Below the pieces are notes generated by a model. It was not told the DNA's origin, did no database searches, and saw only the letters and a program-made list of their open reading frames with translations. DNA of 64,000 nt, taken from positions 24,306-88,305 of the forward strand of contig JARXAD010000011.1 in assembly GCA_029866025.1 (NCBI GenBank), read 5' to 3'. A program made the position numbers and the translations under genes. Numbering within the stretch: position 1 is the stretch's first letter; each line of letters starts with the position of its first letter. This stretch comes from Vampirovibrionales bacterium (lineage in GTDB: Bacteria; Cyanobacteriota; Vampirovibrionia; Vampirovibrionales; Vampirovibrionaceae). Positions 3,585 to 16,774 of the stretch are shown here, one piece after another.

Positions 3585-4091
3585 ATGAGCCCTTGGCGCA
3601 CTTTAGTATTGAGTAACCCTTTTAAGGACCTGTTTGCATTGCTGTGGGTACTCATGTGGGCACTAATAACCCTAACGGCTGGCTCCTTGGCGTGGGCCCA
3701 AGATACCCCCACCAAAGATCTAAAGACCTTACCGCGGTCCATGCGGGATCCTACTCACCCCACTGTTTTGGTGTTTCATGCGCCTTGGTGTGGCACCTGT
3801 AAAAAAATGGCACCCCTGGAAAAAAAACTAGAAAAGCGAACCCATCCAACAGTTCAATGGCGTTGGTTTAACACCGAAGATCCCGCATCGGACAAAATGA
3901 TGAAACGGTTTAACATTCATGTAACCCCCACCTATTTGCTGTTTAATGCCGACGGAAAAGGGGTGTATCGGATGGAAGCCATGATTCGACCAGCAATCCT
4001 TCGACAGGAAGTGCTTCAGCTTCAAGCCAAAGCCATGCCGTCAGGCAGCCCCCCTCTGTCCTCTAAGCAAGGAGGCTCTCGCAAACCATGA
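3585..4091 (+). CDS. Exported or membrane-anchored thioredoxin-like protein
   Basis: Hydrophobic N-terminus, FHAPWCGTC (CxxC), cis-Pro motif VTPTYLLF. Stop overlaps the next start (ATGA). Confidence 0.85.
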   Translation: MSPWRTLVLSNPFKDLFALLWVLMWALITLTAGSLAWAQDTPTKDLKTLPRSMRDPTHPTVLVFHAPWCGTCKKMAPLEKKLEKRTHPTVQWRWFNTEDPASDKMMKRFNIHVTPTYLLFNADGKGVYRMEAMIRPAILRQEVLQLQAKAMPSGSPPLSSKQGGSRKP

Positions 4092-5371
4092 GCCTCTCTT
4101 GGCCCTTTGGCCTTTCTCAAAATCGCTCCTCTTCTACCCTCTATTGCTGGGTTGAAGCTCTACCCACAGCCATTGTGCCTGAAGTTAAAGACGTAGCCAT
4201 TTGGCTGTGGTGTTCAGATCATGCGTCCCTCTACTCGGCTGTGGCCCCGTTGTTATCTTACCAGGCAGACTTAGAAACCCAACTTTTAGAAGGTTTGCAA
4301 CCGCTTGTTGCACAATGGCAAAGCGCCCATGCAAGCAATCATTCGCCGCCTTCCTTTGTCTGGTTGGTTCCGGCTGCTGTGGACCAAACCATGGTGCTAG
4401 CCAAAGGGCTGTTGCCTGAAGAAAAGCTGCTAGCGCTTCAAGCCCAATTGGAAGAACGCTGGGTGTTTCAAAAGGATGCGCCCGCCATTGCCTACCAACC
4501 TGGAAACGATGAAACCACCGCCTTTGAAAAGCCCCTTGTGGCAGCATTGGGAACACGTAGTGTTGCTTTTCTTACCCAAACGGCCGAACAACTGGGGTTT
4601 TCACAATCGCGTATGGTGTGGCAAACGCCGGTGCTATGGCAAGGCCTGCACCAGGTTACAGGCAACGTAAAACGCGGCGTGTGGCTTAGCCGGTTTCAAT
4701 TTGTGGAAATGGGGTGGATGGACGATACCCTTCGTCTTTGGAAGTGTGTGGGACACCCCTACCCCCGGGGCGAAGAGTCGTTGGAAACAGCCGTTGCATC
4801 CTATTGTCAACCCAACCCTGCTTGGGTTTTAAACCAGCACCCCGATATCGACACAGCCCGTTTGTTAGCGGCATTAACCAACGCCACGCCCGAAAGCCCT
4901 TCCGTCGAAACGACCCGCGTACTTACCCCCCAGGGGGACACAGGGATACATTGGGTCCAGAAAGCCGTTGCCAGCCATCCACAGGTGTTAACCCAATGGG
5001 CTTTTAAAATACCCACCTTGCTTGGGTCGCCATCCGCCACACCTAAACAAGGGCTTAGGGTTACCTGGCAATCTCTCTTGGGTAGCGTTTCTGTTATTTC
5101 GTTAGTCTTGGTGTTACTCACAGGCCTAACACTGGCCTGGCAAACCCAACAGCTGGCCCAGCGCCGCCAGGCCATTTCTTCCAAACAATTACTGTTAGCA
5201 CAAGCCGTGACAAGGCATCATCGTCTGCTCAACAATCGCATTATATTAACTTTAAGCAATGGTCCTTTCACACCAACCAAACCATCCACCTCTTTTGCAT
5301 GGCAAGGGCAAGCCTTAAGGCCACAACCGCGTTTGCGACCGTTTTCCAAAACAAAAGGCGGCCACCCATGA
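4088..5371 (+). CDS. Hypothetical bitopic protein, possibly PilM/PilN- or GspL-like
   Basis: 427 aa: large soluble N-terminal part, one TM near the C-terminus (SVSVISLVLVLLTGLTLAW), then a Q-rich helix. ATGA overlaps on both sides. Family call is architectural only. Confidence 0.5.
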   Translation: MSLSWPFGLSQNRSSSTLYCWVEALPTAIVPEVKDVAIWLWCSDHASLYSAVAPLLSYQADLETQLLEGLQPLVAQWQSAHASNHSPPSFVWLVPAAVDQTMVLAKGLLPEEKLLALQAQLEERWVFQKDAPAIAYQPGNDETTAFEKPLVAALGTRSVAFLTQTAEQLGFSQSRMVWQTPVLWQGLHQVTGNVKRGVWLSRFQFVEMGWMDDTLRLWKCVGHPYPRGEESLETAVASYCQPNPAWVLNQHPDIDTARLLAALTNATPESPSVETTRVLTPQGDTGIHWVQKAVASHPQVLTQWAFKIPTLLGSPSATPKQGLRVTWQSLLGSVSVISLVLVLLTGLTLAWQTQQLAQRRQAISSKQLLLAQAVTRHHRLLNNRIILTLSNGPFTPTKPSTSFAWQGQALRPQPRLRPFSKTKGGHP

Positions 5372-5904
5372 GTCAGGGCTTCTCGTTGTTTTTTACGGCT
5401 TTAAAGTCTTCTTTTTCGCGATGGCGAGATGCATTGGCACTAACCACCTTATGGGTATTGGCTTTGGGGGTTGTGTTTTTAACGTGGTTACAACCGTTGT
5501 GGCACAGCTACCAACACATGGCACAGCAACAACAAAAGGACCAACAGCAGTACCAGGAATTGCAATTATTAACAGCCTTTTTACCCCCCGAGCCCCAAGG
5601 AGTTAAAAGCACGTTTCCCACATTGGCACCCAAGCATCCTGATCCACCCGTGTTGGCTGCCATTAACAGTACAACCCACCGTTTTACAAAGGTATCCGGT
5701 GGGTGTGGGGCCCTTCATCATGGATTTACCCTGGGTTGGCAAGAGTGTCAGTGGGCCTTTACAGGCAATAAGGTTACCACTGCAACCTTCATGAACCAAT
5801 TGGCCCAACAACCGGCGTGGATTATGACCCAAGCGCGAGTGATGCCACAAGGCAAAGAATGGAAGCTTTCCATTGCAGGCATCGCCCTATCCACCTTGCC
5901 ATGA
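5368..5904 (+). CDS. Hypothetical bitopic protein, possibly PilO/GspM-like
   Basis: Start moved to ATG 5368 (ATGA overlap). N-terminal TM, Q-rich coiled coil, C-terminal AFTGNKVTTATFMNQLAQQP segment similar to the PilO/GspM fold. Confidence 0.5.
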   Translation: MSQGFSLFFTALKSSFSRWRDALALTTLWVLALGVVFLTWLQPLWHSYQHMAQQQQKDQQQYQELQLLTAFLPPEPQGVKSTFPTLAPKHPDPPVLAAINSTTHRFTKVSGGCGALHHGFTLGWQECQWAFTGNKVTTATFMNQLAQQPAWIMTQARVMPQGKEWKLSIAGIALSTLP

Positions 5905-6986
5905 GAGAGCTACAACCCAACGCCTATCGTAAACGCCCATTGCGCATCGTGCTATTGGGCTTTGGCCCGTTGGCATTCAGTGTTCTAAAAGGCTTGTTGG
6001 CTGGCCCCGAAAACGCGACGGTGGTGGGCGTGGTGGCATGGTCTCAGGTAAAGGATTCTGAGTATAACGATGAGGGCGATACGGCGTTTCTTTCGCTAGC
6101 CCGTAGCAAAGGCCTTTTGCTCAATGGTTCTTTAACAGAATTAGAGAATGAGGCGTGGTCGGCCAACCATCCAAATTTTCATGATTGGGTGCAGCAAAAC
6201 GCCATTGATGTGGTGTGGGTCGCCTCATGGGGTCAAAAGCTTTCAGGGCAAACACTGGCTTTGTCTACACAGCCAGCTGGACCGGTGTTTTTAAACACTC
6301 ATCCGTCGCTGCTACCGATGCATAAAGGCCCTAACCCTTATGTGGCCGCCATTATGGCTTGCAAAAGCGAGTCTGGTGTCACTTTTCATCTGATGGATGA
6401 AGACTATGACACGGGGGCCGTTGTGTTTCAAAGCCGCGTCCCCATATTGCTTAGTGATAGTGGGGGGACGTTGCGCGATCGGATTGCTGAAGCCACTGAA
6501 ACCATGATCCCTAAGGTACTAACGGCATTGCAAACCAAGGTTGCCCAACCCCAACAAGGAAAAGGCTCCTACGAGTCGTCTATTCAACTATCCGATGCCG
6601 CCATTCGTTGGGAATCCGAAGCCTCCGATGCCATTGTAAGGCGTGCCAGAGCCTATACGCCCTGGATTACCCCTTACTGTGTGGGAATTGTAAAGCCCTT
6701 TGGCATGAGTGTACTGCTGGTATTTAAAGCGATTATCAGCCTGCCAAACCATGTGGGGGCGTCGTCATTACCGGTGCAAGGCGGAAAGATCGAAGCGGTG
6801 GCTCAACCCCATGTGATTATTCAAGCCAGTGATGGGGTCTGGCTTCATTGTTCCCTTAGCTATTGGTATTGGGGCCCGTGGCGCCTGCCTCGCGTGTTGC
6901 TTCCCATGCTAATGCCATTGGTATTGCCCGTGGGCGCCTTGGTACACAGTGGGTTGACCCCGAAAGAAGACATTACTTCTGAATAA
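5901..6986 (+). CDS. Formyltransferase (Fmt/ArnA/PurN superfamily)
   Basis: FLNTHPSLLPMHKGPNP and SGVTFHLMDEDYDTGAVV catalytic motifs. Start moved to ATG 5901 (ATGA overlap). Confidence 0.85.
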   Translation: MRELQPNAYRKRPLRIVLLGFGPLAFSVLKGLLAGPENATVVGVVAWSQVKDSEYNDEGDTAFLSLARSKGLLLNGSLTELENEAWSANHPNFHDWVQQNAIDVVWVASWGQKLSGQTLALSTQPAGPVFLNTHPSLLPMHKGPNPYVAAIMACKSESGVTFHLMDEDYDTGAVVFQSRVPILLSDSGGTLRDRIAEATETMIPKVLTALQTKVAQPQQGKGSYESSIQLSDAAIRWESEASDAIVRRARAYTPWITPYCVGIVKPFGMSVLLVFKAIISLPNHVGASSLPVQGGKIEAVAQPHVIIQASDGVWLHCSLSYWYWGPWRLPRVLLPMLMPLVLPVGALVHSGLTPKEDITSE

Positions 6987-9375
6987 TATCCAGTTCTGGC
7001 AGCAAATGGCGCGACACGTTCTCATCGCGCTCGGCTTTGTTTTCGTCCAGCGTGGTTTCCAACTTGCTACGGATTGGAGCCCATTCACCATCGGCCACCA
7101 CATCGGATGGGGTTTTGCTAATCACTTCCGGTTGAATAATCACAATCATTTCATTTTTGTTGTTGTTACGATTTTGATTGCGGAAAAAGGCTCCCAACAC
7201 CGGCACGTTGCCCAATCCAGGGAAACGACTATTCACGCGAATATCTTCATTGTTAAACAGCCCCGCCAATACCAAGCGCTCTTTATTAGCCATTTCCAGT
7301 GTGGTTTGCATACGGCGGGTACGGAAGCCAGGAATATTGAGTCCTCCCGCATCCACAAACAGGGTGGTATCCACGGTGCTCACTTCGGGGGCTACTTGCA
7401 GGTGAATCCGATCCCCTTCCAACACGGTGGGTACTAGGTTGAGGCGAATCCCAAACTCTTTAAATTCCACGCTAATCTGGCCATTCAGTAAGCTTACGGG
7501 CACAGGCACTTCACCCCCTGCCAAAAAGCTGGCCTTTTCACCACTCAGCATAGTTAAAGTGGGTTCGGCTAAGGACCGCACCTGGCGTTTTTCCACCAAA
7601 GCGCTGATGTAAGCGCTAGCCTTATCTCCCAGTGTAAAGAACTGGGTTGCGCCCGTTCCTAATGTCTGGCTTAGGCCTTGACTGTTGGTTATGGCGTTAC
7701 CGGCAGCCACGGCTAAACTAGAGGTTCCACTGGCGGTAGAGACGGCTCTGCTAGCCCCTTGGCGACCACTGAGATTACCAAAGCCTGTGTTACCAACCAC
7801 GCCTTGTAGGGTAGCCCCCAGTTGGTTAAGATCGTTACGACTAATTTCCAAAAACTGGATGGTGCAGCGCACCTGAGGACGATCGCTCACCACTAGCATA
7901 CTCACCACATTGCCACTGGCGTCCGTCACAATAGACCCTTGCAAAATGTTGGCCGCCATATTGGAAGAAAATTCGGTGCCGCTTTGAAATGCGGTGCTGG
8001 TTTCGCCCACCACGCCATTACCACCGGGGCCCGTAATAACCTTTAGCCCTGGCTGGCCATAAAAAATGCTGGCCGTATTAATGGCACGAGAGACCAACTC
8101 TGCCGAGGGAACATTCCCGGTAAGAATGGCTTTTTCACTGCTGTTTAGCCCAGGTACAAGATCCAAATGAATGTTGGCATGGAGATCGTGAAGCTTTTGG
8201 CGCACTTGCGAGAGCTTTGTGGATGGCATTCCCAAAACCCGAATGAGGTTAATAACGTGAGGCCCTTGCTGTGTAGACGACCCACTAGTGGATGGGGGTG
8301 CGCTGCCCGTTGTTGAATCGGACGATGAAGGCGTTGCAGGGGAACTAGCCCCTGCTTGTTGTTGAGTGCCCATAAAGGATTGAGCCAGTTCCACGGCCAG
8401 CTGGGCGGCTTCGGGGGCGGCCACATCACCCGTAAGTACCAGTGATTGGGGGCTGAGGGCGTTGACTTGCACCTTTAAACTGGGGGCAATGCGCTCCAGC
8501 TGGTGCTGCAAAATGCTAACGTCAGGCTGAACAACGATATCCACCAGTTGTTGTGTGTTACCGCCACCACCTTTTGAGACGGGCCATAAAATAAGGTTGG
8601 CCGACCCCAGTGATTTACCAATGAGTTGAATTTGTTGGGGGGTAATCACCACCGCTTGGGCAATATGAGAAGCGCTAATGCTAACGCGCGAAACGGGCTC
8701 TGTCAGATTAAGAATAAGGGATTTCCCCAAGGTAAGCTCTACTTGCGTGTTGGTGGCCGATACAATGGATCGTAACAACGGGTTGTACCCTGTGGAAGGT
8801 TGAATAGCCAACGCTGGCTTAAAAGAAGGGGGAAAAGCTGGGCTTAAAGAGAGTGGGGGTGACGTAAAGGATGAAGGCATGGCCATGTACGAAGATCCAT
8901 GTGACACTTCATCGCTTAAAAAAGGATGCGGCGCTGCGGGCGATGTTACAGACAGCGCAGGAGACACCAAACTTTTAACCACAGCCTCCGCCGGTGGTGT
9001 CTCAATAACCGTGGTGCTTGTTACAGTGGTTTTGGACTCCCTTACGGCCTCTGCAACTTCCGGAGTCTTTGAAGTGAAAAAATCCAAAATAGAGCCGGTT
9101 TTATCGGGCAAAACAAAGGGGGTGCCTACTGGAGGGGCAGTTTTTAAGACGGTGGTAGAGACAACCTGGGTTTCTTTCACCGTGGTTTTTAGGGTAGCGG
9201 CTGCTTTGGGTGCTGTTTTTAGCTTTGCAGGCAACATCTTACCACTGGCTACCGTCGTTTTTTTAGCAGGCGCTGGTGTTTTAGGAGGAGTGGCTGCCAT
9301 ACCCATTGCTATTGTGCCTAGCAAAACGAGTACCGTTAAAGCAGTGCTGGTGTGATGAGTGAATCGCATGGACAC
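6973..9375 (-). CDS. cpaC: Flp/Tad pilus secretin, CpaC/RcpA family
   Basis: Signal peptide, long P/T/K/S-rich linker, pil_N domain (LTLGKSLILNL...IGKSLGSANLILW), secretin motifs SGEKASFLAGGEVPVP, FKEFGIRL, PGLGNVPVLGAFFR. Confidence 0.9.
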   Translation of the reverse strand: MSMRFTHHTSTALTVLVLLGTIAMGMAATPPKTPAPAKKTTVASGKMLPAKLKTAPKAAATLKTTVKETQVVSTTVLKTAPPVGTPFVLPDKTGSILDFFTSKTPEVAEAVRESKTTVTSTTVIETPPAEAVVKSLVSPALSVTSPAAPHPFLSDEVSHGSSYMAMPSSFTSPPLSLSPAFPPSFKPALAIQPSTGYNPLLRSIVSATNTQVELTLGKSLILNLTEPVSRVSISASHIAQAVVITPQQIQLIGKSLGSANLILWPVSKGGGGNTQQLVDIVVQPDVSILQHQLERIAPSLKVQVNALSPQSLVLTGDVAAPEAAQLAVELAQSFMGTQQQAGASSPATPSSSDSTTGSAPPSTSGSSTQQGPHVINLIRVLGMPSTKLSQVRQKLHDLHANIHLDLVPGLNSSEKAILTGNVPSAELVSRAINTASIFYGQPGLKVITGPGGNGVVGETSTAFQSGTEFSSNMAANILQGSIVTDASGNVVSMLVVSDRPQVRCTIQFLEISRNDLNQLGATLQGVVGNTGFGNLSGRQGASRAVSTASGTSSLAVAAGNAITNSQGLSQTLGTGATQFFTLGDKASAYISALVEKRQVRSLAEPTLTMLSGEKASFLAGGEVPVPVSLLNGQISVEFKEFGIRLNLVPTVLEGDRIHLQVAPEVSTVDTTLFVDAGGLNIPGFRTRRMQTTLEMANKERLVLAGLFNNEDIRVNSRFPGLGNVPVLGAFFRNQNRNNNKNEMIVIIQPEVISKTPSDVVADGEWAPIRSKLETTLDENKAERDENVSRHLLPELDIIQK

Positions 9376-9406
9376 GAGGATTCCTTTTTATAACGCGTGG
9401 TAGCGC

Positions 9407-10462
9407 CTAAAAACTAACGGTACTGCGCTTGCCGCCATCCCAAAATTCCACACCTCCGGCCGGTGCAACAGGCTTGGAAGCAGGCTTGGAATAAGAAGGA
9501 GAGGCCGAGGGACGACGATGACCCAGCGTATTGGAAGCGCCCGGCTGACCCAGTAGTTGGCTAATGCTCACCCCATTCGTCTTCACCGGTTCGATAAGAC
9601 GGTTGTTAAGCCCTTCTTCAGGGCGCAGTGACAGTCGTAACGACCCCGCTTCATCGGCAAGGGTCAACGTCTCTACCTGTGCTGGCTTAAGCGACAGAGT
9701 GACGGAGGTGACAATTTTGGCCGTAGTGAGGGGTGGAGGATCATCGCCATCCATGCCAAGCAAGCCCCCGTTATCAGACTTGGCTTCCTTAGAGGCTGAG
9801 GATGCTTCTTGGGTTGTTTCACCTTTCTCAGTAGAGGCGGGCTTGTCCTCTTTTTTAGCCGCTTCCGCTACTGATTCATCGGCTTCCGCAGGTTTGGCGG
9901 GAGTCAAACTAGAGTCTTGGGCAATTGCCAGCACCTGTACCCGCTGCAACACCGTACGCGTAATACGCTGGGCTTTATCCCCTTCGCCTTGTTCAAAGGT
10001 GGCCAATACATCCACCCAATCGCCGGGTTTTACAAAGCCAGCAACGCCCACAATTTCACTAACAGCCACAGTAACAGCCCGCATGCCAGGGGGAATTAAA
10101 ACTGGAAGACCGCCCTTAGAGGTGGCCGACGCCAGTCGGTCGAGAGTCACAGGCTCGTTAGGATGAATGGGCTGGCTAACCACTCGGCCCACCAAGGATT
10201 GGGCATCGCTAAATAGATTGTGGGCATTCATGGCAGTGGCGCGGGGCCAATCCATCACCACAATGTCTTTGGCAGTAATGGCCACACCCGGCAGCAATTC
10301 GTTTTGAGCCACCACCACAGGTAAGGTATCCATGGCCACTGGTGCCGTGGGTTGTTGTTGCTTGTTTTCCAGCACACGGCCCAGCATTAAAGCCGTAATA
10401 ACCGCTAAAATACCGGCAACACCTAAAAATAATACGTTGGCTTTCAGTGGCAAACGAGCCAT
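9407..10462 (-). CDS. cpaB: Flp pilus assembly protein CpaB/RcpC
   Basis: N-terminal TM, SAF domain (VVVAQNELLPGVAIT), GMRAVTVAVSEIVGVAGFVKPGDWVDVL, VLQRVQVLA. Start moved to ATG 10462. Confidence 0.9.
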   Translation of the reverse strand: MARLPLKANVLFLGVAGILAVITALMLGRVLENKQQQPTAPVAMDTLPVVVAQNELLPGVAITAKDIVVMDWPRATAMNAHNLFSDAQSLVGRVVSQPIHPNEPVTLDRLASATSKGGLPVLIPPGMRAVTVAVSEIVGVAGFVKPGDWVDVLATFEQGEGDKAQRITRTVLQRVQVLAIAQDSSLTPAKPAEADESVAEAAKKEDKPASTEKGETTQEASSASKEAKSDNGGLLGMDGDDPPPLTTAKIVTSVTLSLKPAQVETLTLADEAGSLRLSLRPEEGLNNRLIEPVKTNGVSISQLLGQPGASNTLGHRRPSASPSYSKPASKPVAPAGGVEFWDGGKRSTVSF

Positions 10463-10577
10463 ACACCCACCCTGTCCACAAGAAATCAAAAATGGTCACA
10501 CACCACACACAAGCGCGCAAACAATCCGGGGGTATAGAATAACCCAAGCAAGCTAATTATAAAGCCGACTGTGGCGG

Positions 10578-11045
10578 TTATTCTTCGTAACGCATGGTGG
10601 CTGTGGCGGCACAATCAAAGCTGTCAATATCGGCAGCGGTGGTGGCGTTTACCCCCAGGGTTTGTAAAAAAGCCCCCACGGGGATGCCATCGGTAACGGT
10701 GTAGGTCACTCTTACGGTGACGGTTCTGGCACCGACCGTGCCGGTGGGCCCCGTTAAGGTAATGTTACCGCTAGGAATGGTACGCCCACCCGTAACCCCA
10801 CTAAAATACGATTGCACCCCACTGCGAACCGTGGTGGTGACAGAAGCAGGGTTTGTAGCCATCAGCGAGCTGACTGCAGCCAACCGAACCCCATGACGTG
10901 CCGCCATAAACACCGTGGTTTGCAGGTACAAAAACACGCACAACGCCGCAATAAACATAAAGAGTATGACGGTAATAAGGATGCTAAAGACAGACTCAAT
11001 AATGGCCTGCCCTTGCTGTGTTTGACGAATCAACTCTAAAGCCAT
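10578..11045 (-). CDS. tadE: TadE/TadF-like pseudopilin (~155 aa)
   Basis: From ATG 11045: RQTQQG|QAIIESVFSILITVILFMFI...AARHGVRLA, C-terminal VTVRVTY. The upstream ORF-track extension overlaps the flp2 gene and is not used. Confidence 0.85.
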   Translation of the reverse strand: MALELIRQTQQGQAIIESVFSILITVILFMFIAALCVFLYLQTTVFMAARHGVRLAAVSSLMATNPASVTTTVRSGVQSYFSGVTGGRTIPSGNITLTGPTGTVGARTVTVRVTYTVTDGIPVGAFLQTLGVNATTAADIDSFDCAATATMRYEE

Positions 11046-11299
11046 TGTTGCACCGAGGTACTCACTGCTTCCAACAGAGAAATAAACCATGGCCCAAGGC
11101 TCGGGTTCACCTGGGAAATAATCGCCACAGCTAAAATACCCGCCACTACCAAGGCCCCGCTGTATTCTACAATGCCTTGGGCTTTTGGGGCCGATGCTAC
11201 CTGATAGACGATGACTCTGTTTTTTAAAGTTTGCGCTTGTTGACCCAGCTGCTGCCGTTGCAGTAGCAAGCTGCGAAGGAGCATCCAAAAGACGTTCAT
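11036..11299 (-). CDS. Second Flp-type pilin (minor or paralogous)
   Basis: KA|QGIVEYSGALVVAGILAVAII, nearly the same core as the adjacent pilin. Overlaps the tadE start by 10 nt. True start uncertain. Confidence 0.7.
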   Translation of the reverse strand: MNVFWMLLRSLLLQRQQLGQQAQTLKNRVIVYQVASAPKAQGIVEYSGALVVAGILAVAIISQVNPSLGPWFISLLEAVSTSVQQWL

Positions 11300-11349
11300 A
11301 GGGCCTGCTTTGTTATGCGCAATGGGGTAAAACAGGGTAAAGAAGGCAA

Positions 11350-11376
11350 CAGCCGGAGAGGAAAACCCTCCGGCTG
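11350..11376 (-). terminator. GC-rich stem-loop after the major pilin (terminator or mRNA-stabilising hairpin)
   Basis: CAGCCGGAG / CTCCGGCTG 9-bp stem ~35 nt past the flp stop, followed on the minus strand by a pyrimidine-rich tract. Confidence 0.55.
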
Positions 11377-11411
11377 AGACCTTGTACGAGTTGGGGTCGA
11401 ACGACTTAAAT

Positions 11412-11588
11412 TTAGAGCAGGCCCGTAATGCTAGTCTCTACCGAAGAAATAACCGAGTTGAACATACTGGCCAAATTACTTGGACCTGCGGTAACCACGG
11501 CACCCACAATCAGTGCAGCCACAACCAAAGCACCGGCATATTCCACAATGCCTTGACCTTTTTTCGATTGACGATTTAATAAGCGCAT
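11412..11588 (-). CDS. flp: Flp family type IVc major pilin (58 aa)
   Basis: MRLLNRQSKKG|QGIVEYAGALVVAALIVGAVV: basic leader, G at -1, E5-Y6 Flp motif. GGGGGA RBS upstream of ATG 11588. Confidence 0.9.
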   Translation of the reverse strand: MRLLNRQSKKGQGIVEYAGALVVAALIVGAVVTAGPSNLASMFNSVISSVETSITGLL

Positions 11589-11741
11589 TTGATTAATCCC
11601 CCTGAAATTTTTTGTAAACAAAACCACTAAAAACCACGTTGATTTGTTTGAAAAGGGGGATCCAATACGCGCCCCCAAGGGGCACGATCCAATCAAGGGA
11701 AGGGCAAAATGGTCGAGGCGGTGATTGAATCCGTAGATCAG

Positions 11742-11769
11742 TTATCGGCTTTTATTAATTGTTATTTTA
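11742..11769 (-). promoter_or_regulatory. Putative sigma-28 (FliA/SigD) promoter for flp
   Basis: Minus strand TAAA-N16-GCCGATAA, about 150 nt upstream of the flp ATG. The -10 box is a perfect consensus; the spacer is 1 nt longer than the canonical N15. Confidence 0.6.
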
Positions 11770-11807
11770 GGGTTTGAAACCAAACTGTTACACAAGTCTG
11801 GATAACG

Positions 11808-12977
11808 TTACCGCACCAGCCGGATTTTAAAGTTGCCACCCCCGTTTGTGCCCGTAGCGGTACCCGTTGTGCAGTTATTAGAACAGACTGATTGGGTAAA
11901 GTGGCCTTCAATATAGCGGCTACTGGCACTACCCGTGGCACGATAATCCGTAATCTCAAACCCCGTCAGCTGGCTAATACGGTACGACGCATTGGAACCG
12001 CTACCCGATGTGCTATCAATCAATGGAATGGTAATAATGGTGGCAGGGGTGCTGTTGCCACAGCCTTGGCCGCCGATTAGGCTATCTAAAGCGGTACGCA
12101 CCCCATTGCTACTTATGGCATTACCGGGTTGGGTGCTGTAGTTTTGGCCCACCACCACAGGGTTTTCTCCAGTAGCGGTGCCGTAACCGTCTTCAATCCA
12201 GCGGGCAATGGTGGTATTGCCGGGCGCACCCGAGCGATTGTCTCGAAAATCGGCAAAGCCCCAATTGCCTGCAGGGTTGCTGGGGCAACCACTCACGGTA
12301 GCGCCATCCACGGTGTGGTTATTGCCATAAATACGCACCGTATTGTTACTGGGGTTACCGTCTGTCATGGTGCGGTTCCATTGGGCTTGGCAGGCGTAAA
12401 AAGGGCGCAGGCCACTGGTTACGTTAGAAACGCGGTTATCTGCCAAGGCAATGGCTGAGGCTTGAGTACTAAGCAAATTAACACCAAAGAGCTTGGCCAT
12501 AATGGAAGGAATCGTTCCCCCAGGGCTACCCGCCGTGCGCCGAACCCTGACTCGTACTGCATTATATCCGCCTGTAAAACTGTAACTGGTACTGTTATTA
12601 GTAGTGCTAAAAGTACCGGCATTGTAAGTGGGATCGGCTGGATTGAGGTAACCAAAGGTAATATCCACGTTTTGATCAATGCGCACTGGGTTTTGGGTGC
12701 CTTGACTGTTACTGGTGGCTGTGGAAGATGCCGCACCGCGGGCTGCGGTTCGAATGGCGCTAGCACTGGTACCGCTGTTGCGCACCAACTCATGGGTGGC
12801 CGCCAAGGCAGCGCTATCGGCGGCCGATTGCAACAAGGTGTTTTCAGCATACAGGTAGCTCATATCCACCGCCACAGCGCTGGTCATCAGGCCTGTAATG
12901 AGGGTTCCCACCATTAGTACCACCGCGTTACCCGCGTGTCGTTTCCGTTGGTTGCGCTGCGCAGTGTCTGTTGCCAT
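11808..12977 (-). CDS. TadG-like pilus assembly protein / minor pilin-adhesin (~389 aa)
   Basis: RKRHAG|NAVVLMVGTLITGLMTSAVAVDMSYLY...LQSAADSAALAA Tad N-terminal motif; T/S/N/G-rich, Cys-containing C-terminal domain. Start moved to ATG 12977. Confidence 0.85.
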   Translation of the reverse strand: MATDTAQRNQRKRHAGNAVVLMVGTLITGLMTSAVAVDMSYLYAENTLLQSAADSAALAATHELVRNSGTSASAIRTAARGAASSTATSNSQGTQNPVRIDQNVDITFGYLNPADPTYNAGTFSTTNNSTSYSFTGGYNAVRVRVRRTAGSPGGTIPSIMAKLFGVNLLSTQASAIALADNRVSNVTSGLRPFYACQAQWNRTMTDGNPSNNTVRIYGNNHTVDGATVSGCPSNPAGNWGFADFRDNRSGAPGNTTIARWIEDGYGTATGENPVVVGQNYSTQPGNAISSNGVRTALDSLIGGQGCGNSTPATIITIPLIDSTSGSGSNASYRISQLTGFEITDYRATGSASSRYIEGHFTQSVCSNNCTTGTATGTNGGGNFKIRLVR

Positions 12978-13085
12978 TTGCAAAATACCCCCGGATTGTT
13001 TGCGCCTGTCATTTTGGCTTGCAGTACCCACCCTAGTGGATTAAGTATATCTTATGTATTTATTTTGCCTACCCCCCTCCGTACT

Positions 13086-13751
13086 TTATTGCCTCGCGAT
13101 TACGGTAATGGGTTCATCCAGCACCACGGTCATCATCTCGCCCAAGGTTTTTTTTACGGCGGCGCCTTCGGCCCGCTTGCCGCCTTTTACCACTTGGTTG
13201 TACTCGCCAATGCCCATTACGTTATGGATGGAAATTTTATTTTCTGTACCTGGTGTCAATTCGCCGCCCCACACAAAGTTGGGCAGGCCCGTTTTAACAT
13301 GAGCACTAATGGGAATGGTTTCTCCAGTTTGGCGCTGTAGGTTGAAAAAAAGCACTTTAACGATGGCGTTACGGCCCGTAATGGGGGGGTACAACTCTGT
13401 AATTTGCCCAAGCAACACATCGCCTTTTTCAAACAGCCGAACAGTTTTTACAAACACATCGGTGGCTAAGGTGGCAGTAACAGGTTCTCCCACGCGTTGG
13501 CTTTCAGAATCAATGGGAGTATTGAGCCATACATTCCACGCGCTATTGGCGGGCAACGTCACCGAATCTTCCGAATACTCCGCCACGGGGCGCTTGCTCA
13601 CAATGGGGTCGGGGATGGCTTCCCACACCGGCTGAGGCAAGGACGAAGGAAGCAAGTTCTTGGCATGGGCTAAGCCACTCAGTTCAGTAACAACCCAAAG
13701 CCCAACAACCATGCAGGCAACAAAACATCGGCAACGGTAGCTGGGAAGCAT
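13086..13751 (-). CDS. Exported hypothetical protein with a TrbI/VirB10-like beta domain
   Basis: Signal-like N-terminus; LNTPIDSESQRVGEPVTATL...KGDVLLGQITE...GRNAIVKVLF pattern. Co-oriented upstream of the Tad genes. Confidence 0.6.
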   Translation of the reverse strand: MLPSYRCRCFVACMVVGLWVVTELSGLAHAKNLLPSSLPQPVWEAIPDPIVSKRPVAEYSEDSVTLPANSAWNVWLNTPIDSESQRVGEPVTATLATDVFVKTVRLFEKGDVLLGQITELYPPITGRNAIVKVLFFNLQRQTGETIPISAHVKTGLPNFVWGGELTPGTENKISIHNVMGIGEYNQVVKGGKRAEGAAVKKTLGEMMTVVLDEPITVIARQ

Positions 13752-13890: not shown

Positions 13891-14412
13891 ATGACGGCCT
13901 CAACTTCAGACGGATGGCAAAACACCTTTCAGCAGTGGGAATCCCCCACGCCCGATGCTCAGAATCCTTCTGGGCAAGCCACGCAGTCTCTCTCTCAACG
14001 TGCCTCTCAGCCAGATTCGCCATCGGCGCCTCTATCCAACACTCCTTCTGTTGCTAATACGCCAACCTCGGGGTTTACCTCGCCCCCGCCAGCACCCGAT
14101 CGCCGCATGAGCCTAACCCCCAATACGGTGGTGGAGTCGGGCAGCGTTGCTATGCCGGGGTTTCCGCCAGCGGTAATGGATGCCGCCGTGCAGCGTATTG
14201 CCAGCGGTGTGCTGCAACAACTCAGCGACGGCCCTTTTATTGAGCGCTTTTTAAAATCTCAAGAGCTGACCAATGACAATCGGGTGTTGGCCACCCAAGT
14301 GCAGCAACTCATGCGAGACGGCGCCCAACTGCAGCAAGAGGTGCAAGCCGCCCAACAGTATGCTGCCAGTTTTAAGCGCATTGTGGGCAACATTTTTTTA
14401 AAGTTAGACTAG
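13891..14412 (+). CDS. Hypothetical protein, P/S-rich N-terminus and C-terminal coiled coil
   Basis: 173-aa ORF followed by a hairpin at about 14421-14443. Confidence 0.7.
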   Translation: MTASTSDGWQNTFQQWESPTPDAQNPSGQATQSLSQRASQPDSPSAPLSNTPSVANTPTSGFTSPPPAPDRRMSLTPNTVVESGSVAMPGFPPAVMDAAVQRIASGVLQQLSDGPFIERFLKSQELTNDNRVLATQVQQLMRDGAQLQQEVQAAQQYAASFKRIVGNIFLKLD

Positions 14413-15239: not shown

Positions 15240-15590
15240 CTAACGCTGGGTAAGTACCTGCCCAAGGCTTAAATTGGCGGCAGCAATAGTGCCTGTTGGC
15301 ACCTCTAACACGCTGTGGGCCTTAAAAATAACGGGGCTTAGGTGCCACGGCTTTAGATTTTGTTGCAGGTGCACAATGGTGCCATCCTTGGTAATGAATA
15401 CCGCATCCAAGGCAAAACGCATCCAAAACATGTGCACACTGTTGCATGGCGTAATCCACAAGCCATGGCCGTCGGGTAGTTCTTTGGTAAACATCAACCC
15501 TTTTAGGCGTAGTAAGGGGTTGTTGGCCAAGCCCACGTGGCTAGCCACCGTGGATTGGGTGGTTTCGTTCAACACGCTTACTATTTTCAT
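15240..15590 (-). CDS. DUF192 family protein
   Basis: LANNPLLRLKGLMF...GLWITPCNSVHMFWMRFALDAVF...VLEVPTG. Start moved to ATG 15590. Confidence 0.9.
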   Translation of the reverse strand: MKIVSVLNETTQSTVASHVGLANNPLLRLKGLMFTKELPDGHGLWITPCNSVHMFWMRFALDAVFITKDGTIVHLQQNLKPWHLSPVIFKAHSVLEVPTGTIAAANLSLGQVLTQR

Positions 15591-16051
15591 ACGCAATCCT
15601 TTGCCTGCCTGCATTGCATTTTAAAACGCTTATCAACGGTTAGTCTAAGTTATAAAGCCGAGAGAAGAGCCCTGCACCTGTGGGATGTGGCTATCATCCG
15701 TTCAACAATTCCTCCCCTGCCTGTGCTAAGCCACCCAGCGGGGCCAGTACGTTGGCCTTCTCATCTACATAACCTAAGCGTTAAAACTATTGGTATTGGC
15801 AAAAAGCCATTGTTTAAAGGCCCTTGGGCCTTGGTATTAACCCAAAGGTGTATAAAACCCTACACCGACCGGTGGAGACAAACCTTGAGGAATATCCACC
15901 GCAACGACGATGAGAAACCCCAGTGCGCCCCCCTACAATAACAGTATCAACACTCATTGAAACAAAGCAGTTACAACGCAGTCGCAACACACCCGCAGTT
16001 CCCCATTTAATCCCAGTTTTACAATTCACTCAGCACTTTGGAGGCAACCCC

Positions 16052-16774
16052 GTGATCCGTCGCATGAACACCGGCTTTGGTAACTCGTCCGAACTTCGCA
16101 TTTTTATTGTGGATGACAACGCCAACCACAGCACCGGCATTAAACAGTTGCTGGAAATTCAAAGCGGTTACAGCGTGGTGGGCATTGCTACCAACGGAGA
16201 CGAAGCCCTGAAGCGCCTAGAGCACACCGAGTGCGATGTGGTACTGATGGATATGAACATGCCGGAACTTGACGGCGTTGCCACCATCCAGCAGCTCATT
16301 TCCAAAAATCCTCGCGTTAAAATTCTAACCCTCACCGGTTATGATGACCCCGACCTCATCTTTCGTGCTATGCGCAGCGGTGCCAAGGGCTACATCCTCA
16401 AAACCATGATTACATCGCAACTGATTAACGCCATTGAAGAAGTGATGGCGGGCAAAGTGTACCTGCCGCCTGCTTTGGCCACCAAGTTCTTTGACGAATT
16501 CACCATCAAAGTGGGTGCCACCAACAAGCCGGACGCTGCCAAGCAAGCGCTTCTCAACTACCTTACCCAGCGTGAGAAAGAAGTGCTAAAGCTACTGACG
16601 GAAGGCATTACCTACCGCGGTGTCGCCGATCACTTAGTCATTAGCGAAACCACCGTCAAAACCCACGTCAACAACATTTTCCAAAAGCTTCAGGTCAACG
16701 ATCGCACCCAAGCCGTCCTCTACGCCATCAAGCATGGCCTCGTCGACGCCACTCCCATCCCCCTTGCCGTCTGA
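16052..16774 (+). CDS. NarL/LuxR-family response regulator (orphan)
   Basis: Receiver domain (IVDD, VLMDMNMP, GAKGYILK) plus LuxR HTH (LTQREKEVL...ISETTVKTHVNNIFQKL). GGAGG RBS 7-8 nt before GTG 16052. Confidence 0.92.
   Translation: MIRRMNTGFGNSSELRIFIVDDNANHSTGIKQLLEIQSGYSVVGIATNGDEALKRLEHTECDVVLMDMNMPELDGVATIQQLISKNPRVKILTLTGYDDPDLIFRAMRSGAKGYILKTMITSQLINAIEEVMAGKVYLPPALATKFFDEFTIKVGATNKPDAAKQALLNYLTQREKEVLKLLTEGITYRGVADHLVISETTVKTHVNNIFQKLQVNDRTQAVLYAIKHGLVDATPIPLAV

Follow-up and report, generated by a model that had tools for sequence, protein, structure and literature searches.

A probable complete Tad/Flp pilus system encoded at two loci of a Vampirovibrionales genome

Does a run of Tad pilus genes that provides pilins, a periplasmic ring protein and a secretin, with no motor or platform genes at hand, belong to a complete machine? 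Canonical type IVc loci, such as Caulobacter crescentus Cpa and Aggregatibacter actinomycetemcomitans Tad, are single operons in which a small prepilin peptidase (CpaA/TadV) accompanies the Flp pilin (with its G/XXXXEY motif), TadE, TadG, CpaB/RcpC, CpaC/RcpA, TadZ/CpaE, TadA/CpaF, TadB and TadC. The question is raised here by six minus-strand genes, tadG, flp1, flp2, a tadE-like gene, cpaB and cpaC, which run from position 13031 down to 6973 in a 64,000-nucleotide stretch (the window) of contig JARXAD010000011.1 from a Vampirovibrionales bacterium, a non-photosynthetic relative of cyanobacteria. We consider it likely that window 6973-13031 (-) forms one half, that of the fibre and the outer envelope, of a Tad/Flp (type IVc) pilus system that is complete and whose operon has been split, the motor and platform genes lying on another contig of the same genome, C7 (Table 1).

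The gene list proposed by a first-pass annotation of the window was borne out by Pfam and NCBIfam profiles for three genes and by motifs for the rest. CpaB matches RcpC (104 bits) and SAF (31.6 bits) in Pfam and TIGR03177 in NCBIfam (194 bits against a cut-off of 71), CpaC matches Secretin (132 bits) and T2SS-T3SS_pil_N (52.7 bits), and TadG, whose orthologues go by that name at JGI, passes the cut-offs of both Pfam Tad (28.6 bits, cut-off 22.3) and Tad_C (35.4 bits, cut-off 22.1). The genes flp1, flp2 and the tadE-like gene were identified by class III signal motifs (KKG/QGIVEY, KA/QGIVEY and QG/QAIIES, respectively), each followed by a hydrophobic helix. The same annotation had reported that TadA, TadB/C, TadZ and a prepilin peptidase were missing from the window, and this held for the window contig as a whole: profile searches found neither a T2SSE ATPase nor an A24 peptidase on it, and BLAST with the genome's own proteins found no copy of TadB, TadC or TadZ.

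Genome-wide, there are six T2SSE ATPases (two of TadA type), four secretins and one A24 peptidase. One of the two tadA genes lies on C7 in a run tadZ-tadA-tadB-tadC, near which there is no cpaB, cpaC or pilin gene. The other, whose product is 58% identical to C7 TadA, belongs to a self-contained run cpaB-cpaC-tadZ-tadA-tadB-tadC (C13:391916-399378) with a cpaC of 464 aa and a tadZ that carries a receiver domain. A further cluster, C4:130011-133300, holds three Flp genes with the motif KGQSLVEYAL together with genes for a 294-aa TadE-like and a 352-aa TadG-like protein, and is likely to be the pilin set of the C13 system.

The link between the window locus and C7 comes from relatives. Long-cpaC orthologues of 670-1005 aa are present in 23 of 24 relatives of the same family (f1), and only a genome that is 78% complete lacks one. 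A second family (f2) has them in each of its five genomes, and a third (f3) in two genomes. In 20 of 24 relatives examined, flp-tadE-(flp)-cpaB-cpaC-tadZ-tadA-tadB-tadC stand in one run; only one of these 20 lacks tadB and tadC there, its contig breaking off inside tadA. In all of them, the motor genes behind the long cpaC are closer to the C7 than to the C13 proteins: the TadA encoded there is 61-71%, in one comparison up to 74%, identical to C7 TadA, whereas the second TadA of these relatives, of C13 type, reaches 50-58%. As judged from gene order and protein identity, the two halves are thus shown to descend from a single operon flp-tadE-cpaB-cpaC-tadZ-tadA-tadB-tadC, which is intact in most relatives, and the earlier suggestion of a split Tad system was correct in that C7 tadZ-tadA-tadB-tadC are orthologous to the motor genes behind the long cpaC. 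On the same comparison, the genome encodes one system (system A) made of the window locus and the C7 motor genes, probably joined by a lone flp1-type gene far from Tad machinery (C10 ~10992-11237 (-); motif KG/QGVIEYAGAIV; 41% identical to Flp1), and another (system B) made of the C13 locus and the C4 pilin genes.

From sequence alone, one could also suppose that the C13 motor serves the window pilins and secretin and that the C7 motor has some other partner, since both motors are of TadA type and cross-talk between paralogous Tad systems is possible. This is very unlikely, and C13 was rejected as the partner of the window locus: it has its own cpaB and cpaC, 20 relatives join the long cpaC to C7-type genes, and the families that have the C4-type minor pilins are those that have the C13-type system. 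C4-type TadG is present in f1 genomes, together with the C13-type system, and absent from every f2 and f3 genome searched; among these are the five f2 genomes, all of which carry the long-cpaC system only. In one relative, G009, it adjoins the C13-type locus.

The operon is broken in four genomes: the window genome, G001, G009 and G039. The halves are 207 kb apart in G001, a closed genome, and 630 kb apart in G009, and in G039 the break falls after tadZ. An assembly artefact was rejected as the cause of the split in the window genome, because cpaC is directly followed by a convergent formyltransferase gene and a further 31 kb of contig, because 15.8 kb of C7 precede tadZ, and because closed G001 has the same split. 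By its distribution, the split is a recent, derived rearrangement of an ordinary operon in a few genomes. There is no support for regarding it as a special feature, the ancestral arrangement being an ordinary contiguous tad operon, which is also listed for Vampirovibrio chlorellavorus.

Table 1. Positions of the window Tad genes, of their C7 counterparts and of the segments of CpaC. Window and C7 positions are in nucleotides, CpaC positions in residues.
Feature	Location	Remarks
tadG	window 11808..12977 (-)	Open reading frame open to GTG at 13031; ATG at 12977 is the likely start
flp1	window 11412..11588 (-)	58 aa; probable major Flp pilin; leader MRLLNRQSKKG cut before QGIVEY
GC-rich 11-bp hairpin	window 11350..11376 (-)	Directly 3' of flp1
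flp2	window 11036..11299 (-)	87 aa; second, divergent Flp-like pilin
tadE-like pseudopilin	window 10578..11045 (-)	155 aa; motif G/QAIIES
cpaB/rcpC, periplasmic ring protein	window 9407..10462 (-)	Open reading frame open to 10489; ATG at 10462 is the likely start
cpaC/rcpA, long-form Tad secretin	window 6973..9375 (-)	800 aa
tadZ	C7:15826-17139	AAA_31, CbiA and CBP_BcsQ above cut-offs; TadZ_N sub-threshold, 20.7 vs 26.4 bits
tadA	C7:17238-18734	T2SSE 219 bits
tadB	C7:18734-19705	T2SSF 61.9 bits vs cut-off 25.2
tadC	C7:19711-20697	T2SSF 61.9 bits vs cut-off 25.2
CpaC signal peptide	1-27	
CpaC disordered stretch (predicted)	28-207	180 aa; P 14%, T 14%, S 13%, A 12%, K 8%
CpaC pil_N beta-sandwich	208-283	
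CpaC BON-like domain	284-341	
CpaC linker	342-372	S/P/T/G-rich
CpaC second BON-like domain	373-448	
CpaC N3 domain	482-598	Broken by a 51-aa disordered insert
CpaC secretin domain	599-754	
CpaC C-terminal helix	766-778	

Is the window locus then still in use? It might instead be a decaying relic, left after its motor genes were lost or moved, from which no pilus is made. The lack of any motor, platform or peptidase gene within 64 kb would fit such a history, as would a non-consensus alanine at the processing site of flp2 and the state of G009, which lacks flp and tadE upstream of cpaB and in which the C7-type tadA match is partial. This is nevertheless extremely unlikely in view of the six intact open reading frames, of the intact orthologous motor set on C7 and of G001, which keeps the same split at ~50% protein identity. 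Selection speaks in the same direction. An environmental Logan contig of 83% nucleotide identity (L128) has the same arrangement of tadG, flp1, flp2 and tadE, preceded by the same gene for an exported 221-aa protein, and the ratios of non-synonymous to synonymous substitution rates (dN/dS, Nei-Gojobori method) between the two, which cover tadE up to codon 124 as well as tadG, flp1 and flp2, lie in the range 0.04-0.15, namely 0.047 for tadG, 0.044 for flp1, 0.048 for tadE and 0.15 for flp2. These four genes are under purifying selection; the window locus is not a relic, nor is it incomplete.

The most distinctive protein of the locus is its secretin. It had been described beforehand as about 800 aa long with an extra linker of roughly 180 aa ahead of the pil_N domain; both figures stand, the linker corresponding to residues 28-207, which explains only part of the additional length. 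An AlphaFold model, Pfam and an alignment in which three canonical CpaC proteins stand beside 18 orthologues from Melainabacteria (Table 1) show that the extra length consists of the disordered N-terminal stretch, a conserved module of ~140 aa that contains the second BON-like domain, and the N3 insert. The AlphaFold 2 model of the monomer has a mean predicted local distance difference test score (pLDDT) of 59.8, with 75-90 in the folded domains. The least conserved part of the extra length is the N-terminal stretch, which ranges over 109-391 aa across one orthologue group. The module (residues 342-481) measures 113-188 aa in all aligned Melainabacteria orthologues and 0-5 aa in canonical CpaC. 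When residues 365-500 were searched against 1.84 billion representative proteins, there were only 35 matches, of which 31 had E <=1e-10; these 31 are mostly of 600-1000 aa and include long-CpaC orthologues already identified. An exact look-up found no identical CpaC record, and a scan of public genomes returned no close relatives, only distant CpaC proteins from Proteobacteria and others that are 27-46% identical over the secretin core. As far as sequence comparison goes, the long CpaC is a secretin form specific to the Melainabacteria lineage. Its orthologues are named 'Candidatus Melainabacteria bacterium' or 'Cyanobacteria bacterium' at NCBI, and these names support the assignment of the host to Melainabacteria/Vampirovibrionia.

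The best solved relative is RcpA of the Pseudomonas aeruginosa Tad system, determined with its pilotin TadD (8odn; PMC10499894), which matches CpaC residues 501-758 only (E 6.6e-45); the window CpaB is likewise of the family of P. aeruginosa RcpC (PMC12307814). The RcpA chain in 8odn has 426 aa, in contrast to the 800 aa of window CpaC with its disordered stretch, second BON-like domain and N3 insert. Foldseek searches with the CpaC model returned secretins at the top, followed weakly by the dual-BON proteins OsmY and DolP. With one ring-building (BON-like) periplasmic domain more than canonical CpaC or RcpA, and with the disordered stretch in addition, the secretin probably has a longer periplasmic conduit or one that is anchored in the envelope of this lineage, and a Melainabacteria-restricted secretin with an additional periplasmic domain makes a clean structural target. 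In a second group of orthologues (P0015, P0017, P0018, P0019 and P0020), the N-terminal stretch is nearly absent and there are low-complexity C-terminal tails of 110-320 aa, three of which finish with a conserved motif of LLSL type. Between lineages, the disordered part of the long CpaC has switched ends.

What would pass through this secretin is a fibre of Flp1, which has a mature length of ~47 aa and a Glu at position +5 of the processing motif. Flp1 is a member of a very conserved family (K-G/QG(V/I)(I/V)EYAGALV) whose gene stands at the head of the operon in 22 relatives. Flp2 shares 41% identity with Flp1 and has no Pfam match; it has a leader of 37-42 aa with Ala rather than Gly at -1 (flp2 codon, window 11170-11180), in contrast to the same 87-aa flp2 in L128, which has the consensus Gly. 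The last 10 nt of flp2 overlap the start of tadE, which suggests translational coupling, and Flp2 is a candidate adapter or minor Flp. The syntenic TadE orthologues, 31-55% identical in 21 relatives, reach 25-30 bits in G003, G002 and G025, above the Pfam TadE cut-off of 22.9. TadG, with orthologues of 355-397 aa, is a large minor pilin and a candidate pilus-tip subunit. A structural prediction of this protein, which the first-pass annotation had proposed, gave a confident model (AlphaFold 2, pLDDT 84, predicted template modelling score 0.79) in which an N-terminal helix of 50 residues precedes a globular head of alpha/beta type, for which Foldseek found no solved relative (no PDB fold match below E 0.06) and no vWA domain. 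By analogy with the adapter Flps and tips of the Myxococcus Kil system, Flp2, TadE and TadG may form a priming and tip complex.

The hairpin that follows flp1 has a predicted stability of -30.1 kcal/mol (z -4.66), and its stem is identical in L128; an unrelated and equally strong hairpin with a T-run stands at the same position 3' of flp1 in G001. It was not called by a consensus terminator scan because its T-run is weak, and the consensus promoter and terminator scan as a whole yielded sites no more numerous than in shuffled sequence. The hairpin is a probable terminator or attenuator that gives a high ratio of pilin to machinery.

Taken together, these components would assemble a pilus as follows. 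The single PilD/PulO-type peptidase of the genome, a 378-aa protein with a Cys-rich N-terminal region encoded at C9:303853-304989 (the sole Peptidase_A24 match up to E 0.1), would cut Flp1 after KKG. TadA, working on a TadB/TadC platform and placed by TadZ, would polymerize Flp1 into a fibre that exits by way of the ring of CpaB and the secretin, the long CpaC. The priming and tip complex would consist of TadE and TadG, for which the divergent Flp2 perhaps provides the link to the fibre, and the hairpin 3' of flp1 would hold pilin transcripts in excess of machinery transcripts.

Several points weigh against this interpretation. The genome (2.19 Mb in 13 contigs) is 94% complete, so that absences in it are not proven. 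A genome-wide check for tadA, tadB, tadC and tadV, suggested at the outset, recovered the first three on C7 and left the last unfilled: the A24 search across this genome found no dedicated small TadV/CpaA/FppA peptidase of the kind known from P. aeruginosa. The Flps remain below the threshold of Flp_Fap (13.8-15.4 bits against a cut-off of 32.2; E 0.052 for flp1), the window TadE-like protein has no Pfam match of its own, and Flp2 may be poorly processed owing to the Ala at -1 and its unusually long leader. There is no tadF or TadD gene in the locus, neither having been searched for genome-wide, and no tetratricopeptide repeat lipoprotein gene among the open reading frames scanned in the window locus or beside the C7 motor genes, in a scan not directed at TadD. 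Finally, the role of the extra CpaC domain rests on a monomer model with a mean pLDDT of 59.8. Compared with the Caulobacter and Aggregatibacter loci, the component list is the same, whereas the window system is laid out in two loci, relies on a PilD-type peptidase and has Flps below the Flp_Fap threshold.

A closer counterpart was already on record. Table S3 of Soo et al. (2015; PeerJ, PMC4451040) lists for V. chlorellavorus a Tad locus (IMG genes 2600256298-2600256304) in the order tadE, cpaB, 'BON domain / secretin / pil_N', cpaE, cpaF, tadB, tadC, as well as a second Tad locus (tadB-cpaF-cpaE-cpaC-cpaB) and one pulO. These genes are merely listed under 'pili', and the main text, in which neither Tad nor Flp is mentioned, has only "type IV pili" and thick bundles of pili close to the flagellum, so that the gene set has been catalogued but never analysed. 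V. chlorellavorus and the window genome, compared by gene tables rather than by sequences, share gene set and order, a second Tad locus and a single pulO. They differ in that the V. chlorellavorus operon is contiguous, whereas that of the window genome is broken between cpaC and tadZ and has tadG moved next to flp.

What is the pilus for? By analogy with other Tad systems, the function is most likely adhesion to surfaces or to host or prey cells. The first-pass annotation had offered the locus as a candidate host-attachment or attack apparatus, and a contact-dependent machine for attacking prey or host, like Myxococcus Kil or the Bdellovibrio Tad, with TadG as a prey-recognizing tip, would agree with the presence in the lineage of the algal predator V. 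chlorellavorus, which has an orthologous operon and displays the pilus bundles mentioned above (Soo et al., 2015; PMC4451040). Kil is likewise a Tad system in two clusters, a layout termed "a unique situation" (Seef et al., 2021; PMC8460266), and its pili have a major Flp, the small adapter Flps KilK and KilO and TadE/F/G-like tips (Herrou et al., 2025; PMC12075869), a pattern in which window tadG, tadE and flp2 can be read likewise; a PilD-type peptidase may also process some Kil pilins. However, the genes are divided differently, pilins, CpaB and secretin being separated from TadZ, TadA, TadB and TadC in the window genome, while in Kil the peptidase and ATPase share cluster 1 with the secretin, and the platform lies in cluster 2 along with CpaB and the pilins (PMC8460266). 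The Kil clusters also carry FHA-domain proteins (a feature of cluster 1) and lipoproteins, and Kil works together with a type III secretion system that has no needle; around the window and C7 loci, a scan that covered part of the neighbouring open reading frames revealed neither an FHA-domain protein nor such a secretion system. In addition, the split is recent and nothing ties the system to killing, which makes an attack machine of this type quite unlikely. The window genome offers a second two-cluster example, from another phylum, that is recent and not a trait of a whole lineage.

A broader version of the idea would see the long-secretin Tad, kept in two Vampirovibrionales families, as an organelle for seizing or attacking hosts, convergent with Kil and the Bdellovibrio Tad, that makes the V. 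chlorellavorus bundles. This is speculative and rather unlikely; if it were true, the organelle would have as its adaptations the lineage-restricted second BON-like domain of the secretin and the tip set of TadG, TadE and Flp2. The placement of the locus comes close to that of a typical, ordinary adhesion pilus, which the first-pass annotation itself had set against an attack role.

What looked like an incomplete locus now has an identified partner, with which it makes up a complete Tad system at two loci, and default single-locus models would miss such systems in the window genome and a few relatives. Studies of the attachment of Vampirovibrio to algae gain a gene list that comprises two Tad systems with the pilin set of each and the one peptidase that they share. 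The finding is a well-supported and fairly ordinary annotation, and shows no new mechanism.

The genes around the locus can be treated briefly. Upstream of tadG, a 221-aa protein (13086-13751, -) had been labelled TrbI-like, a label that found no backing, since searches of Pfam, NCBIfam and PDB sequences gave no match, TrbI included. The family to which it belongs is exported and has one to five members in each of the 41 genomes of the order that were searched, including genomes without TadA, and its copies in other genomes lie far from the Tad operon; it was thus rejected as a Tad component, being present in Tad-free genomes and unlinked to Tad genes. Beyond cpaC, overlapping genes for 427-aa and 201-aa proteins with one membrane-spanning stretch each (window 4088-5904, +) converge on the tad half-locus. 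The 201-aa protein has a sub-threshold match (E 7.5e-4) to GspM of the type II secretion system, and the two proteins may serve another type IV filament system as an assembly pair of GspL/GspM or PilN/PilO kind. On C7, two tandem secretin genes (71482-75791, +; 682 and 754 aa), a pair conserved in relatives, probably belong to a type IVa pilus or a type II secretion system. Upstream of the window locus, a divergent gene (13891-14412, +) encodes a coiled-coil protein of 173 aa, and a homologue with 37% identity stands just upstream of cpaB-cpaC in G009 (L105 4351-4782), where an 860-aa open reading frame takes the place of flp and tadE. Further upstream, 1.5-3 kb from the locus, are a DUF192 gene (-) and a gene for a LuxR-type response regulator (+) (window 15240-16774), the receiver domain of the latter giving a weak TadZ_N-like match.

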